Positions 31,934 through 41,773 of a stretch of 64,000 nt of DNA are shown here, in pieces. The stretch lies in assembly GCF_003334765.1 (NCBI RefSeq), contig NZ_QOWT01000012.1; one strand, written 5' to 3'. The notes under the pieces were generated by a model. It ran no database searches. It was not told the DNA's origin and was given only the letters and a program-made list of their open reading frames with translations. Position numbers and translations under genes: made by a program. Source of the stretch: Escherichia coli (GTDB lineage: Bacteria > Pseudomonadota > Gammaproteobacteria > Enterobacterales > Enterobacteriaceae). Positions within the stretch are counted from its first letter, which is position 1. Every line of letters starts with the position of its first letter.

Positions 31934-31989
31934 TAGCGAGCACTTGCAGATATCGATAAGGGCCACAATAAGCAGCCCTACGAAGATAA

Positions 31990-32961
31990 TTACTTAGCTG
32001 CCTGAATATCAGCCAGCATTGGGGCAAGGGCTGGGTTGTCCTTAGCGAAGTTTGCGTACATTGGCTGTACTTTCTCGATAAACGGAGCTTTATCTACCTG
32101 GTAGACTTTCACGCCCATTTTATCCAGTTTTGCAAATTCTTGTTTCTCTTCCTCGCTCCACAAGTCTTTCATGTAGCTCATTGATTCTTTAGCTGCTTTT
32201 AATATAACTGCCTGATTTTCCTGGCTAAGTTTATCAAACGCAGCATTGCTCATCAGAACCACATCGGGAACCATAGTGTGTTCGTCAAGGCTGAAGGATT
32301 TTGCCACTTCACCGTGACGCATGGTAGTCAGCGCCATCACGCTGTTTTCTGCCATATCGACCACACCCTGCTGTAAGGCTGTATACAACTCGCCGTAATC
32401 CAGTGGCGTCGGGTTACCGCCCATGACTTTGATCATTTCAACTGCGCCAGGGCTTGGCTGGACACGGACTTTCATGCCTTTCAGATCGTCTGGTTTCAGT
32501 ACTGGTTTATTGCCATAGAAACTGCGGGCGCCTCCATCATAAAAAGTCAGCCCGAAATAACCTTTGCTTTTCGTTGAGTCGAGGATTTTTCTCCCGATAT
32601 CGCCCTGCATGACCTGATAATAATGATCACGATCGCGGAACAAATAAGGCAGGCTAAATAATTTATAGGAATTTTCAAATGCTTCCATTTCTGCCGCATT
32701 GGTTTTTACCAGGGGAATAGCGCCAGAACGAATCAGCTCCATTGTTTCTCGTTGAGTACCCAATGTTCCATTTGGATAAATACGAATAGTAATATCACCG
32801 TTAGAGTACTCTTTGCTCTTTTTCGCAAAGAACTCCATCGCTTTATGAACAGGATGAGACTTATCCTGATTATGACTCAGTTTTAATGTCACTGCCCAGG
32901 ACTGGCTTGCGGATAACATAAGAACAGCACCGATAATGCCAGCGGATACTTTTATTTTCAT
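31990..32961 (-). CDS. TRAP transporter periplasmic solute-binding protein (DctP family)
   Basis: 323-aa ORF with signal peptide MKIKVSAGIIGAVLMLSASQSWA; AAGGA ribosome-binding site; last gene of the island operon. Confidence 0.82.
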   Translation of the reverse strand: MKIKVSAGIIGAVLMLSASQSWAVTLKLSHNQDKSHPVHKAMEFFAKKSKEYSNGDITIRIYPNGTLGTQRETMELIRSGAIPLVKTNAAEMEAFENSYKLFSLPYLFRDRDHYYQVMQGDIGRKILDSTKSKGYFGLTFYDGGARSFYGNKPVLKPDDLKGMKVRVQPSPGAVEMIKVMGGNPTPLDYGELYTALQQGVVDMAENSVMALTTMRHGEVAKSFSLDEHTMVPDVVLMSNAAFDKLSQENQAVILKAAKESMSYMKDLWSEEEKQEFAKLDKMGVKVYQVDKAPFIEKVQPMYANFAKDNPALAPMLADIQAAK

Positions 32962-33013
32962 AGATGTTCCTTTTCTAATAAATATGGCGGCAGGTGCCGC
33001 CAGTGAATGCGCA

Positions 33014-34315
33014 TCAGTAGCCCAGTGCTCTTGGCAATGCCATACTGATTTGCGGAATATAGGTCACCATTGCCAGCACCAATACCATCACGGCATAGAA
33101 TGGCAGCATAGGTTTGATAATTTTATTAATCGGTAATTTAGATACACTACAACCGACAAATAACACACTGCCTACAGGCGGAGTACAAATACCGATACAC
33201 ATGTTCAGTACCATGACAATACCAAAGTGAATCGGGTCCATGCCCAGTTCGGTGACAACCGGTAAAAATATCGGCGTAAAAATCAGTACCGCCGGTGTCA
33301 TATCCATAAAAGTGCCGATAATCAACAGGATAATATTGATAATAAGCAGGATTATTATTGGGTTGTCAGAAATAGTGTTAAGCAAATCGAGAATCAGGAA
33401 GGGAACGTCAGCGTTTGACATTGCCCATGACATACCCATCGAAGAACCAATTAATAACAAGACAATTGCAGTGGTAATAACGGATTCCAGAAATATTTTA
33501 GGTAAATCTTTAACTGAGATTTCACGATAAAGAACCAGTGCAAGGAAAAGGGTATAAATTACTGCAATTGCGGAGGCCTCTGTCGGGGTAAAAATACCAC
33601 TTAATACACCCCCCATAATTAAAATAATCAGGAAAATACTGGGGATAGCCATCCATATCGCAACGCCAGCCTGGCGTAAAGTCGGGCGTTCTGGCTTTGG
33701 ATAACCGCGACGTACCGCGATAATACCGGCTATTACCATCAGTGCCAGACCCAGCAAAATTCCCGGAACATAACCCGCCAGGAACAGTGCGGCAATAGAA
33801 GTACCACCACTGACCAGTGAATAGACGATTAACGTATTACTTGGTGGAATAAGCAAACCCGTCGGGGCAGAGGCAACGTTAACCGCAGTACTGAATGCCG
33901 GGTCGTAACCCTCTTTAACCTGTTGCGGATGCATGACGCCGCCCATCGCAGCCGCCGAAGCCACGGCTGAACCAGAAATTGCCCCGAACAGCATATTGGC
34001 GAGAATATTACAGTGGGCAAGTGAGCCTGGCAGACGACCGCCGAGAATACGGGCAAAGTTGATTAATCGTCGCGCTATTCCTCCATGGTTCATAATGTTG
34101 CCAGACAAGATAAAAAATGGGATTGCCAACAACGTAAAACTATCTAACCCGGAGGCTAACTTTTGGGAAACCACACTCAATGCTGAGTTGAAATCGAGTT
34201 GTGTGGAAATTGATGCCAGTGTCGATAAACCAATGGCATAAACAATAGGTACACCTAATGCCAACATAAAAAAGAAGGCACCAAATAACACAATAATCGG
34301 TAACCAGTAATCCAT
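33014..34315 (-). CDS. TRAP transporter large permease (DctM family)
   Basis: 433-aa polytopic hydrophobic ORF; GGAG ribosome-binding site upstream. Confidence 0.82.
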   Translation of the reverse strand: MDYWLPIIVLFGAFFFMLALGVPIVYAIGLSTLASISTQLDFNSALSVVSQKLASGLDSFTLLAIPFFILSGNIMNHGGIARRLINFARILGGRLPGSLAHCNILANMLFGAISGSAVASAAAMGGVMHPQQVKEGYDPAFSTAVNVASAPTGLLIPPSNTLIVYSLVSGGTSIAALFLAGYVPGILLGLALMVIAGIIAVRRGYPKPERPTLRQAGVAIWMAIPSIFLIILIMGGVLSGIFTPTEASAIAVIYTLFLALVLYREISVKDLPKIFLESVITTAIVLLLIGSSMGMSWAMSNADVPFLILDLLNTISDNPIIILLIINIILLIIGTFMDMTPAVLIFTPIFLPVVTELGMDPIHFGIVMVLNMCIGICTPPVGSVLFVGCSVSKLPINKIIKPMLPFYAVMVLVLAMVTYIPQISMALPRALGY

Positions 34316-34357
34316 AATTTCTCCATTCCTACTATGGTTGGTTGTTGTTTGTTATCT

Positions 34358-40112: not shown

Positions 40113-40121
40113 GATTCAGCC

Positions 40122-40913
40122 TCAGAAGCGCGGCATACTTAAGCCGCCGTCGATGGCGACCGCCTGACCACAGGTGTAAATCAGTTTACCTTCCGCCATC
40201 GCGCGGACAGTGGAAGCAATATCAGCCGGATAACCCCAACGTCCCCACGGCACCAGACCTTTGGCAATCAGTTCGTCGTAATAAGCCGTTGCCGGAATAG
40301 TCATATCAGTTTTGATGAGACCTGGGCGCACTTCATAAACGCCAATTTGTTCATTACAAAGGCGAGCTGCAAATAGACGAGCAGCGGCAGAAACGGCGGT
40401 TTTGGCAATGGTGTATTCGCCGCGATTCATCGCCAGCATGATGGCGTTGATGGAACTGACGAAAATAATCGAGCGGTGCGGCAGTTCCGCTTCCGGTTTC
40501 GGCTGTGCCAGTAAACGCTTACTGAATGCCTGAGCAAGGAAGAACGGCGCGCGGGTGTTAATGGCAATGTTTTGATCGAAGCTGTCTGGTTCGAGGTCGA
40601 GGAGGTCACCGCGTTTTTTCACTGAAATGCCTGCGTTGTTGAGCAGGCAGTCCAGACGTCCCCACAGGTTTTGCGCCGCGTCGAGCATCTCTTCATGCAA
40701 GGAGAGATCGCCGACATCGGCAGGGAAGCAAATCACTTCCACGCCTTCAGCTATACATTCTTGTTGTGTGATATGCAGTTTTTCTACGCTGTCGGCATCG
40801 GGAAGATCGTTAATCAGCAGGTTAAATCCGCCACGAGCAAGCTCCAGCGCACAGCCCTTTCCAATACCACGAGCGGCTCCGGTAATCACGGCAACAGGAC
40901 GAGTGGATTTCAT
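40122..40913 (-). CDS. Short-chain dehydrogenase/reductase (SDR)
   Basis: ORF track 40122..40955 begins at a TTG; ATG at 40913 gives MKSTRPVAVITGAARGIGKG (TGxxxGIG), NNAG motif and YTIAK (YxxxK); 263 aa; first gene of the operon. Confidence 0.82.
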   Translation of the reverse strand: MKSTRPVAVITGAARGIGKGCALELARGGFNLLINDLPDADSVEKLHITQQECIAEGVEVICFPADVGDLSLHEEMLDAAQNLWGRLDCLLNNAGISVKKRGDLLDLEPDSFDQNIAINTRAPFFLAQAFSKRLLAQPKPEAELPHRSIIFVSSINAIMLAMNRGEYTIAKTAVSAAARLFAARLCNEQIGVYEVRPGLIKTDMTIPATAYYDELIAKGLVPWGRWGYPADIASTVRAMAEGKLIYTCGQAVAIDGGLSMPRF

Positions 40914-41125
40914 ACAATAGCTCTCTTTTTTTGAATATTGTTTTCTAAGTGACAATTAGCTTGCGACGTGCCGCAAGAAAGATCAACCATCTGGTTGGTT
41001 GATATGCGATAGTGATCACAGGACATTTGATAACTTGATGAAAGTACAAGTTTTTATCCTTTTTACTGGAGCTTCTAATTAATCGGGTTAAGATAGTTAT
41101 CTTGAAGAGGTCGTGGGGAAGCGTT
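40914..41125. promoter_or_regulatory. Divergent promoter/operator region between the island operon and its TetR regulator
   Basis: 212-bp AT-rich spacer containing inverted repeats ATCAACCA-N6-TGGTTGAT (40982-41003) and TTGCG-N6-CGCAA (40961-40976). Confidence 0.6.
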
Positions 41126-41773
41126 ATGTATCTTGATACCAGCAACGTACAGAGCCTGAAGGAAAAGCTGCTGTTATGCGCGGTTAATGAATTTGCCGAA
41201 TATGGTTATGAAGGGGCCAGGGTCGATAATATTGTTAAGGCTGCGGGGTGTAGTAAACAGACGGTTTATCATCACTTTGGTAATAAAGAAAATTTATTTA
41301 TTGAAGTACTGGAATATACCTGGAACGATATTCGACAAAAAGAAAAGGCCCTTGATTTCTCAGATCTTCCGCCACAAAAAGCCATTGAGAAAATTATTGA
41401 TTTTACATGGGATTATTATATTGCTAATCCCTGGTTTTTAAAAATTGTGCATAGTGAAAATCAAAGTAAAGGTGTGCATTATGCAAAATCACAGCGTCTC
41501 TTAGAAATTAACCATGCGCACTTGCAGTTAATGGAATCCTTATTGGATGAAGGGAAGAAACACAATATTTTTAAGCCAGATATCGACCCATTGCAGGTGA
41601 ATATTAATATTGCTGCGCTTGGCGGATATTATTTGATCAACCAGCATACGCTTGGCCTGGTTTATCATATCAGTATGGTTTCCCCCCAGGCACTGGAAGC
41701 CAGACGTAAGGTCATCAAAGAGACAATCCTTAGCTGGCTTTTGGTTGACCCTTCATCTACCGCGCACGAATAA
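41126..41773 (+). CDS. TetR/AcrR-family transcriptional regulator
   Basis: ORF track 41102..41773 begins at a TTG; ATG at 41126 after GGGGAAG gives [58 protein letters not shown] (TetR N-terminal helix-turn-helix); 215 aa. Confidence 0.85.

Follow-up and report, generated by a model that had tools for sequence, protein, structure and literature searches.

Hexuronates are degraded by way of UxaC-UxuB-UxuA or KduI-KduD to KdgK-Eda, with glucuronate transporters of the tripartite ATP-independent periplasmic (TRAP) type, such as STM3169-3171, on the import side. The cai operon of E. coli is made up of an importer (CaiT), a CoA-transferase (CaiB), a crotonase-family dehydratase (CaiD) and a flavoprotein that acts on the enoyl-CoA (CaiA). 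Streptomyces turns shikimate into cyclohexanecarboxyl-CoA (CHC-CoA) with an AMP-dependent shikimoyl-CoA synthetase, an FAD-dependent dehydratase of the acyl-CoA dehydrogenase (ACAD) type and a reductase of the Old Yellow Enzyme (OYE) type (PMC5852498), and Klebsiella michiganensis consumes 2-deoxyribonate by an acyl-CoA route with a CoA synthetase, a beta-hydroxyacyl-CoA dehydrogenase, a thiolase, a lactonase and a glycerate kinase (PMC6365646). Here we analyse an operon that resembles each of these systems in part. It lies between rplI and ytfB in a 64,000-nt stretch of E. coli DNA (the window; contig NZ_QOWT01000012.1, assembly GCF_003334765.1; all coordinates are window positions) and encodes a short-chain dehydrogenase/reductase (SDR), a TIM barrel protein, a crotonase, a CoA-transferase, a flavoprotein and the TRAP components DctQ, DctM and DctP, with a gene for a TetR-type regulator divergent from them. 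With moderate confidence we read it as a TetR-repressed, substrate-inducible catabolic operon for an anionic hexuronate-like sugar acid, that is, a ring-shaped or polyhydroxy monocarboxylate. This confidence covers the class of substrate and the general logic and falls much lower for any particular substrate; the exact substrate and the order of the steps are what we infer.

With the hexuronate routes the operon shares the type of substrate-binding protein, its carboxylate-binding arginines and its ligand-contacting asparagine, and with the KduI/KduD pair the logic of an isomerase-type enzyme combined with an SDR; members of the flavoprotein family, moreover, often lie beside KdgK-like and Eda-like genes. 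However, UxaC, UxuA, UxuB, KduI, KdgK and Eda are all absent from it, and no known hexuronate route has a CoA-transferase, a crotonase or an FrdA-like flavoprotein, all three of which it encodes. The cai operon is similar in outline (importer, CoA-transferase recycling CoA between product and substrate, crotonase, flavoprotein), but CaiB belongs to family III and CaiA is an acyl-CoA dehydrogenase that works with FixABCX, whereas here the CoA-transferase is of family I and the flavoprotein FrdA-like, with no electron-transfer flavoprotein (ETF); cai also lacks an SDR and a TIM barrel and uses another transporter family. The Streptomyces pathway (AnsJ/PlmJK, PlmL, ChcA, PlmM, ChcB) is alike in activating a ring-shaped polyhydroxy acid with CoA and in following this with dehydrations and with SDR and flavin reductions. 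It is, however, biosynthetic, activates by an AMP-ligase, has neither a TIM barrel nor a transporter, and has only the SDR and crotonase superfamilies in common with the operon. Identity of the two was rejected since their ligase and flavoprotein families differ, and we keep the Streptomyces pathway as a comparison of how such a route works. The deoxyribonate route is likewise enterobacterial sugar-acid catabolism via CoA thioesters, from a cluster with a CoA-transferase and importers of the major facilitator superfamily (MFS), but identity with it was rejected too, because the gene sets differ and that route is without a crotonase, a TIM barrel or an FrdA-like flavoprotein. The enzyme superfamilies of the operon are all familiar; the sources searched describe neither their combination nor the flavoprotein subfamily. 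NCBIfam offers no equivalog-level name with functional content for the proteins of the locus, our literature searches returned no publication on the operon, and the RefSeq product names for its nine genes in E. coli ML35 are generic only. The first-pass annotation, made from the sequence alone, knew of no named E. coli pathway with this gene combination, which agrees with the NCBIfam, PDB, AlphaFold database (AFDB) and literature searches.

The same annotation held that the substrate cannot be read from the sequence, which appears too pessimistic, since transporter relatives and flavoprotein neighbourhoods in other phyla narrow the class to a hexuronate-like sugar acid. DctP has a signal-peptide-like N-terminus and matches TIGR00787 with 246 bits (cut-off 175). 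Its nearest relatives in the PDB bind hexuronates: 4n8y galacturonate, 4x8r glucuronate, 4n91 and 4mhf glucuronate/galacturonate (PMC11668362, PMC7660916). Its closest homologues outside the operon (57% identity) belong to glucuronide clusters of Vibrio and Providencia together with GH2, GH31, UxaC, a mannitol-dehydrogenase-family (UxuB-like) protein, UxuA and a GntR regulator, and in Vibrio also with KdgK and Eda. Arg146 (in GGARSFY) and Arg166 (in KVRVQPSP) of DctP align with arginines of the galacturonate-bound 4n8y and the glucuronate-bound 4x8r, and in such substrate-binding proteins the arginine pairs with the carboxylate of the substrate (PMC7660916). In glucuronate-specific binders of the STM3169/Apre_1383 type the ligand residues are Asn35, Gln36, Glu74, Arg150, Arg170, Asn210 and Asp237 in STM3169 numbering (PMC7660916); N31, Q32, R146, R166, N206 and D233 of DctP match them by a constant offset of -4, applied without an alignment to STM3169, and for Glu74 the same offset leads to Gln at position 70, two residues before a Glu (72). 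All three DctPs linked to the operon have DMAENSVMALTTM, where the homologues from glucuronate clusters have DGAENNPTALTTA and the crystal structures DGAENNW. The exchange of DGAENN(W/P) for DMAENSV suggests that the ligand may differ from glucuronate and galacturonate, and the pocket would then be one of hexuronate type tuned to a related, possibly less hydroxylated ligand. Other strains have an ACS-family MFS protein in place of the TRAP system; the E. coli form of it is 52% identical to that of Klebsiella and Salmonella, and both fall in the D-galactonate-transporter subfamily TIGR00893.

Inside the cell, catalytic motifs are intact in all five enzymes. The CoA-transferase is a family I enzyme (fused alpha/beta) and a paralogue of YdiF, matching PDB 2ahu at 1e-113 over residues 6-508; PF01144 is found in its orthologues, and its presumed catalytic Glu324 is assigned by the motif SVEQG. 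It is not FadX itself, as the FadX model gives 383 bits against a cut-off of 750. The crotonase (ECH_1 in orthologues; best NCBIfam matches all below their cut-offs) has both catalytic glutamates of hydratases, in GGGIE (E115) and NPE (E135). A YdiF-like CoA-transferase next to a crotonase with both glutamates implies that a CoA thioester is hydrated or dehydrated. The SDR is a classical dehydrogenase/reductase, probably NAD-preferring, with the motifs TGAARGIG, NNAG and YTIAK. It exceeds the cut-off of NF009386, a model with only a provisional name (417 bits versus 250), and its nearest structures are structural-genomics entries. Despite its RefSeq name FabG it stays below the cut-off of the FabG model TIGR01830 (122 bits versus 298), and its context is a catabolic operon. 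The TIM barrel protein is about 57% identical to SMc04130 (PDB 3qc0/3ju2) and about 47% to 7vpf, for neither of which a described function was found in the literature searches. AP_endonuc_2 in orthologues and candidate metal-ligand motifs (EPLHP, DVYH, FHVSD, ELEIF) lead us to read it as a xylose-isomerase-like, presumably metal-dependent isomerase, epimerase or beta-eliminase acting beside a carbonyl.

The most distinctive enzyme of the operon is the flavoprotein, a soluble member of a divergent FrdA/SdhA/NadB-like family. The ML35 protein matches FAD_binding_2 (PF00890, 8e-28) over residues 43-475, and a Foldseek search of the PDB with its AlphaFold model (pLDDT 89) ranks FrdA/SdhA best at 15-18% identity, probability 1.0 and TM 0.66-0.79. 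It has the FAD_binding_2 fold, the dinucleotide-binding motif GSGAAG, the His/Arg pair and the four-domain architecture in common with FrdA, SdhA and NadB, H437 and R469 being the equivalent of the pair that holds the substrate carboxylate in FrdA/NadB; further motifs are QHMNGG and HGVTRPGG. On the other hand, it has QFGIA where FrdA/NadB have QFHPT, so that the histidine is replaced (Gly276 is invariant in the family), about 100 extra C-terminal residues, and a family-specific capping domain that cannot be aligned with theirs and carries invariant motifs of its own (WNLSGTY, KGYQWP). Assignment as fumarate reductase or L-aspartate oxidase was rejected on account of the incomplete dicarboxylate site, which in those enzymes includes the QFHPT histidine and a catalytic arginine of the capping domain, and of NCBIfam scores far under all cut-offs (at best 126 bits against 718). 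Genes for an Fe-S subunit or a membrane anchor are absent from every version of the operon (E. coli, Klebsiella, Salmonella and a 63%-GC organism, L093). Fold searches with the model found no characterised neighbour, those in AFDB being all unnamed, and the family, which counts 422 representative clusters at E<=1e-30, has no characterised member.

Gene context of this family was taken from 80 loci of named genomes, the contigs of the metagenomic representatives P0121, P0123 and P0127 being too short to be informative. The neighbour seen most often, in 29 loci, is an SDR of the same family as in the operon; the TIM barrel occurs in 12. Other neighbours are Gfo/Idh/MocA proteins (16 and 9), GMC oxidoreductases (19 and 18), KdgK-like kinases (12) and proteins resembling 2-keto-3-deoxy-6-phosphogluconate (KDPG) aldolase (12), as well as LacI regulators and sugar ATP-binding cassette (ABC) transporters. 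The trio of SDR, TIM barrel and flavoprotein is found without CoA enzymes in Planctomycetota, Lentisphaerae and Verrucomicrobia, in Pseudescherichia, Phytobacter and Mangrovibacter, here with a Gfo/Idh/MocA dehydrogenase and an MFS transporter, and in Brenneria, where a PcaK-like aromatic-acid MFS gene follows it (369 bits). The flavoprotein genes of Rhodobacteraceae and Rhizobium belong to sugar clusters, together with genes for an ABC transporter, two GMC oxidoreductases, a Gfo enzyme resembling levoglucosan dehydrogenase, a KdgK-like kinase, a KDPG aldolase and a LacI regulator; in Phycisphaerales the flavoprotein gene accompanies an SDR, a KDPG-aldolase-like gene and an OYE/GltD-type reductase. 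Such neighbourhoods indicate that the family belongs to sugar or sugar-acid chemistry, often ending at 2-keto-3-deoxy-(phospho)gluconate. At least five distant lineages have CoA-transferase and crotonase genes close to that for the flavoprotein (examples are a betaproteobacterium, two Rhodobacter, Devosia and Desulfobacterales), and the CoA-thioester branch thereby seems to have been attached repeatedly to the chemistry of this family.

Two of these contexts deserve description in their own right. An alphaproteobacterial cluster (L027, L030, L032, L052 and about 15 more) contains a sugar ABC transporter, two GMC genes, a 102-aa protein, a LacI regulator, a levoglucosan-dehydrogenase-like Gfo protein, the FrdA-like flavoprotein, a KdgK-like kinase and a KDPG aldolase, with no classical dehydratase, and it matches no described pathway. 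Betaproteobacteria bacterium MS502-56 (L020 1-12109) has a cluster that runs CoA-transferase, crotonase, TRAP transporter, MaoC dehydratase, acyl-CoA dehydrogenase (acryloyl-CoA reductase-like), EtfB, EtfA, TIM barrel, flavoprotein; this is an expanded CoA-dependent version and may show the partners that the E. coli flavoprotein lacks.

As to regulation, the intergenic region between the divergent SDR and TetR genes measures 212 nt (40914-41125) and holds a perfect palindrome, which makes it the obvious place to look for the TetR operator. A repeat search of the region missed it; it was seen in the terminator scan, as a hairpin, and by direct reading. E. coli, Klebsiella and Salmonella share the core of this candidate operator, TCAACCATCT.GTTGGTTG, although the intergenic DNA around it has diverged, and related palindromes (TCAACTA..TAGTTGA) occur in Pseudescherichia and Brenneria. 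Both features of a TetR-regulated divergent catabolic operon, the divergent TetR-type regulator and the intergenic palindrome, are thus present. Orthologues of the regulator carry TetR_N and TetR_C_29, with a ratio of nonsynonymous to synonymous substitution rates (dN/dS) of 0.03-0.04.

The following scheme would accommodate these observations. TetR would sit on the palindrome, ATCAACCA-N6-TGGTTGAT, until the substrate, or a CoA ester formed from it, caused its release. In the periplasm DctP would bind the acid by means of Arg146 and Arg166 for import by DctQM, a task that would fall to the ACS-family MFS protein in other strains. The YdiF-like CoA-transferase could then place CoA on the carboxylate of the substrate, taking it from acetyl-CoA or from the ester of the pathway end-product, and the crotonase would remove or add water across the alpha-beta bond of the thioester, a step that would be the CoA-level equivalent of a sugar-acid dehydratase forming a keto-deoxy acid. 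The SDR, the TIM barrel and the flavoprotein may form a module that oxidises, isomerises or eliminates, and reduces or desaturates on the ring or hydroxy-ketone part of the molecule, the flavoprotein holding the carboxylate with His437 and Arg469. The product would probably be a 2-keto-3-deoxy-hexonate of the 2-keto-3-deoxygluconate type, to be finished by the housekeeping enzymes KdgK and Eda.

Several points weigh against this reading. The E. coli operon has no kinase or aldolase gene, and the exit through KdgK and Eda is extrapolated from other phyla. E. coli already possesses the CoA-independent Ashwell pathway for hexuronates, and a second route would need a reason. No enzyme of the operon has a characterised close relative, so that every chemical step is derived from family-level chemistry, and none of the other genes of the operon encodes an obvious electron partner for the flavoprotein. 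On the transport side, the match to STM3169 is by constant offset and not by direct alignment, the motif difference that sets the operon DctPs apart from hexuronate binders lies beside the ligand-contacting Asn (N206), and the PcaK-like transporter of Brenneria is easier to reconcile with a hydroaromatic substrate than with a sugar acid. More tentative still, and in our estimate rather doubtful, is the wider proposition of an undescribed sugar-acid catabolism in which the CoA thioester is made first, a crotonase performs the beta-elimination that is usually the work of sugar-acid dehydratases or lyases, and a widespread FrdA-like/SDR/TIM module follows, with a range from Enterobacteriaceae to Planctomycetota and gut Firmicutes. 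If the sugar-acid reading through CoA thioesters were true, it would give a function to hundreds of orphan flavoprotein clusters and could bring to light a nutrient of the gut, or an electron sink, accessible to most E. coli but not to K-12; if the substrate were an ordinary hexuronate handled redundantly, the importance would be modest. In either case the operon lies in genetically tractable strains, and identification of its substrate would annotate a large orphan flavoprotein family.

The main rival is a hydroaromatic substrate (quinate, shikimate or a dehydro or dihydro derivative), processed by chemistry like that leading from shikimate to CHC-CoA in Streptomyces: activation with CoA, hydration or dehydration, reductions or desaturations by the SDR and the flavoprotein, and a TIM-barrel dehydratase acting beside the ring ketone. 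Such an operon could be a gut-bacterial route from shikimate to cyclohexanecarboxylate. Quinate and shikimate are six-ring polyhydroxy carboxylates with the shape of a pyranuronate, the more hydrophobic DctP motif (DMAENSVM versus DGAENNPT) is compatible with them, and the Brenneria trio is paired with what resembles an aromatic-acid/H+ symporter. The CHC-CoA pathway, too, uses CoA activation, a flavin enzyme and an SDR (ChcA), and its ChcB is a crotonase-family isomerase, which we count in favour of this rival; among the matches of the acyl-CoA dehydrogenase of the betaproteobacterial locus, which stands there with ETF genes, is cyclohexane-1-carbonyl-CoA dehydrogenase (303 bits, below cut-off). 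However, the CHC-CoA enzymes come from other families (AMP-ligase, ACAD-type flavoprotein, OYE-type reductase), and a sequence search of the PDB detected no similarity of the TIM barrel to 3-dehydroshikimate dehydratases. Most neighbourhoods of the flavoprotein family are of sugar type (Gfo, GMC, KdgK, Eda, LacI, sugar ABC), both MFS alternatives are of the ACS/galactonate type and not of the ShiA or aromatic-acid type, and the literature offered no support. We regard a hydroaromatic substrate as rather improbable.

The automatic product names (acyl-CoA:acetate/3-ketoacid CoA-transferase, enoyl-CoA hydratase, 3-ketoacyl reductase) suggest a route resembling beta-oxidation, which would act on a fatty, hydroxy or dicarboxylic acid of short chain length with the flavoprotein in place of the acyl-CoA dehydrogenase; this seems to us unlikely. 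A CoA-transferase, a flavoprotein dehydrogenase, a hydratase and an SDR would make a formally complete turn. The CoA-transferase is closest to YdiF and FadX, TetR has weak NCBIfam matches to fatty-acid regulators, and TRAP systems of the DctP type also carry C4-dicarboxylates. But a thiolase and an ACAD-family dehydrogenase are absent from the E. coli, Klebsiella, Salmonella and L093 versions, and a TIM-barrel gene of the sugar isomerase/epimerase type is conserved inside the operon. That SDR, TIM barrel and flavoprotein co-occur independently of the CoA enzymes (in Brenneria, Pseudescherichia and the three phyla named above) does not fit a fatty-acid cycle either; the transporter relatives are sugar-acid types, and the SDR fails the FabG model.

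The transporter genes raise a different question, since they differ between strains. Among E. coli genomes the TRAP form is present in 1448, and in 1686 others the ACS-family MFS gene occupies the same slot; in K. huaxiensis the slot holds TRAP genes, as in the TRAP-form E. coli. All three components of a DctP-type TRAP system are present, with PF03480, PF06808 and PF04290 on the K. huaxiensis orthologues. DctM matches TIGR00786 with 458 bits (cut-off 268) and is 95% identical to that of K. huaxiensis; E. coli DctQ, whose K. huaxiensis orthologue provides the PF04290 match, itself shows a weak YiaM match. Between ML35 and NC101 (an MFS-form strain) flavoprotein identity is 98% as far as residue 612 or so and drops to about 51% beyond it, which places the breakpoint of the exchange inside the flavoprotein gene, with a recombination zone in its last ~80 codons (~34855-35100). 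The DNA that came in brought its transporter genes fused to the tail of a homologous flavoprotein gene. This tail evolves fast in all lineages (29-72% identity), and as that of ML35 is 56% identical to K. huaxiensis and 51% to NC101, tail comparison among these three assigns neither a donor nor a direction to the swap. In the unrelated L093 an orthologous TRAP system (72-85% identical to that of E. coli, DctM 85%) is linked to the same five enzymes plus a MaoC dehydratase, and these enzymes are only 40-62% identical to the E. coli ones; a TRAP system so much more conserved than the enzymes beside it indicates that this TRAP lineage travels with the pathway. A link of TRAP genes with those for CoA-transferase, crotonase, TIM barrel and flavoprotein in the betaproteobacterium likewise speaks for a transporter that is part of the pathway. 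The transporter is the variable part, and the five-enzyme core is constant across lineages that have different carboxylate or sugar-acid importers.

Such variability could also mean that the TRAP genes have nothing to do with the enzymes, and encode a glucuronate importer feeding UxaC/UxuAB that happened to land beside an unrelated operon. To this we give as little weight as to the beta-oxidation-like route. DctP keeps the residues reported for glucuronate binding (by offset mapping, with Gln at position 70) and is 57% identical to DctPs of glucuronide clusters. The TRAP genes (31990-34858) have 40-45% GC against 50-55% for the five enzyme genes, which indicates a separate origin, and two longer spacers (42 and 52 nt) and a hairpin fall within the TRAP part. 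Yet the same TRAP orthologue group accompanies the same enzyme set in K. huaxiensis and in the 63%-GC organism, the swap has its breakpoint within the flavoprotein gene, one carboxylate importer or another is always found in the slot, and neither a promoter nor a terminator signal is conspicuous from the flavoprotein gene to dctQ. The TetR gene, too, is low in GC (39.5%), and it is nevertheless conserved and syntenic across genera.

Other genes have been observed around the transporter slot. In NC101 a gene for a helix-turn-helix antitoxin-like protein and one for a HipA-family toxin stand between rplI and the MFS gene (L002 2486-4248). Klebsiella (L004 13468-14394) and Salmonella (L006 13444-14379) have an EamA/DMT-family transporter gene between the MFS gene and rplI, which is absent from the E. 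coli versions examined (ML35, NC101, MG1655).

Preference for a catabolic operon for a hexuronate-like sugar acid also agrees with the intactness and conservation of the locus. TetR and the five-enzyme core, scored as at least 80% coverage of window positions 34900-41100, are present in 3112 of the 5426 complete E. coli genomes (57%), among them ML35 and the B2 strains NC101, NU14 and APEC O2-211. K. huaxiensis, Klebsiella oxytoca and Salmonella enterica likewise carry the cassette between rplI and ytfB, and in the latter two its genes run TetR, SDR, TIM barrel, crotonase, CoA-transferase, flavoprotein and transporter. Members of the flavoprotein family are also found in E. albertii, E. marmotae and Citrobacter. 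K-12 has only yjfZ and ytfA in this interval, as the first-pass annotation stated. According to the MG1655 sequence, ytfA is a pseudogene made of the 3' 402 nt of the TetR gene (98% identical to window 41371-41773), and an SDR relic of 102 nt persists as well (81% identity; MG1655 locus 3088-3189, window 40723-40824). The relic is far more diverged than the MG1655 flanks, which are 98-99.9% identical, suggesting that the deleted allele of K-12 is old or foreign. Homology to K-12 on the rplI side stops at 31931, just past the terminator, and on the ytfB side sets in again at 41371. Prevalence of 57%, synteny across genera and the K-12 relics mark the core as an old enterobacterial locus of which K-12 is a loss variant; the evidence favours an ancestral locus lost by K-12 and others over a strain-specific island. 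The word accessory, which the first-pass annotation had applied to the whole locus, is therefore apt for the transporter only and does not suit TetR and the five enzymes. E. coli metabolism has largely been defined with K-12, a strain that deleted what most complete genomes of the species keep, and the TRAP, MFS and deleted states might explain a niche difference between E. coli lineages.

All nine genes have full-length orthologues in Klebsiella and/or Salmonella, with pairwise dN/dS of 0.03-0.08, and this combination shows that they are real genes and not chance open reading frames (ORFs). The single outlier is the flavoprotein in the comparison of ML35 with NC101 (0.215), and the recombinant tail explains it. 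The locus is intact and under strong purifying selection. That it is a decaying remnant without current function is contradicted by this analysis and very improbable: outright loss in ~42% of complete E. coli genomes (K-12 and O157 types included) and occasional insertion sequences (IS) would fit it, but all nine genes of the window locus are full length with intact motifs, the 3112 genomes above keep at least 80% of the core, and the frameshifts or truncations that would have marked decay are not seen. Several inactivated states were observed. O157, O145 and other genomes have IS609 (IS200/IS605 tnpA and the TnpB/InsQ gene) among TetR fragments at the site, which is a third, independent way of losing the locus. 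In individual E. coli strains ISVsa5 lies inside the CoA-transferase gene, or an IS1-associated deletion has left only dctP and TetR remnants, and NU14 has IS1A in its MFS gene; these insertions show ongoing sporadic inactivation.

The coordinates of the genes and signals are collected in Table 1.

Table 1. Features of the rplI-ytfB interval, in window positions
Feature	Position	Strand	Basis
dctP	31990-32961	-	ORF list and RefSeq ML35
dctM	33014-34315	-	ORF list and RefSeq ML35
dctQ	34358-34834 (RefSeq start) or to 34858 (166 aa)	-	RefSeq WP_001244358.1
flavoprotein gene (693 aa)	34855-36936	-	ORF list and RefSeq ML35
CoA-transferase gene	36933-38474	-	ORF list and RefSeq ML35
crotonase gene	38484-39260 (RefSeq start) or to 39266	-	ORF list and RefSeq ML35
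TIM barrel gene	39270-40112	-	ORF list and RefSeq ML35
SDR gene, first of the operon	40122-40913	-	ORF list and RefSeq ML35
TetR gene, divergent	41126-41773	+	RefSeq WP_001299246.1
candidate TetR operator, perfect palindrome ATCAACCA-N6-TGGTTGAT	40982-41003		direct reading and hairpin in terminator scan
bidirectional intrinsic terminator for rplI (+) and the operon (-)	31900-31926		12-bp stem, A-run and T-run flanks

E. coli ML35, a strain with 100% identity to the window, has these nine genes in the RefSeq annotation of its rplI-ytfB interval, and the flanks follow K-12 order (ulaF, yjfY, rpsF, priB, rpsR and rplI on one side; ytfB, fklB and cycA on the other). The ORF list and RefSeq thus uphold what the first-pass annotation had laid out, nine tightly packed ORFs with a divergent TetR gene, set among core genes in reference order. 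The family names that it predicted all hold in NCBIfam, in Pfam on the ML35 flavoprotein and in Pfam on orthologues (DctP, DctM, DctQ, FAD_binding_2, CoA_trans, ECH_1, AP_endonuc_2, adh_short, TetR_N), and its junction lengths agree with ours to within one base. The SDR and TIM barrel genes are separated by 9 nt, the TIM barrel and crotonase genes by 9 nt (or 3), and the crotonase and CoA-transferase genes by 9 nt. The CoA-transferase and flavoprotein genes share a 4-nt ATGA overlap. Between the flavoprotein gene and dctQ there are 20 nt, or a 4-nt overlap with the alternative dctQ start; 42 nt separate dctQ from dctM and 52 nt dctM from dctP. RefSeq starts differ from those of the longest ORF for three genes, namely dctQ and the crotonase gene (Table 1) and the SDR gene (ATG at 40913 versus TTG at 40955). 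The proposal that the eight genes form one operon fits these tight junctions, the lack of a convincing internal terminator and the strong bidirectional terminator past dctP. Matches to consensus promoters are no commoner at the locus than in shuffled sequence, and no promoter was called; an Rfam scan of the locus gave only a sub-threshold match over the terminator, and no riboswitch or known small RNA.

In the spacer between dctM and dctP a GC-rich hairpin, TGGCGGCACCTGCCGCCA, is followed by a T-rich tract (32985-33002, minus strand), a structure that could tune the level of dctP message against that of the membrane subunits. At the other end of the locus the 3' ends of the TetR gene (plus strand) and ytfB (minus strand) converge and overlap by 17 nt (41757-41773). 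The same 17-nt overlap is found in Klebsiella (L004 5160-5176), in Salmonella (L006 5159-5175) and between ytfA and ytfB of K-12, and it may be the reason why the 3' stump of the TetR gene persists in K-12.

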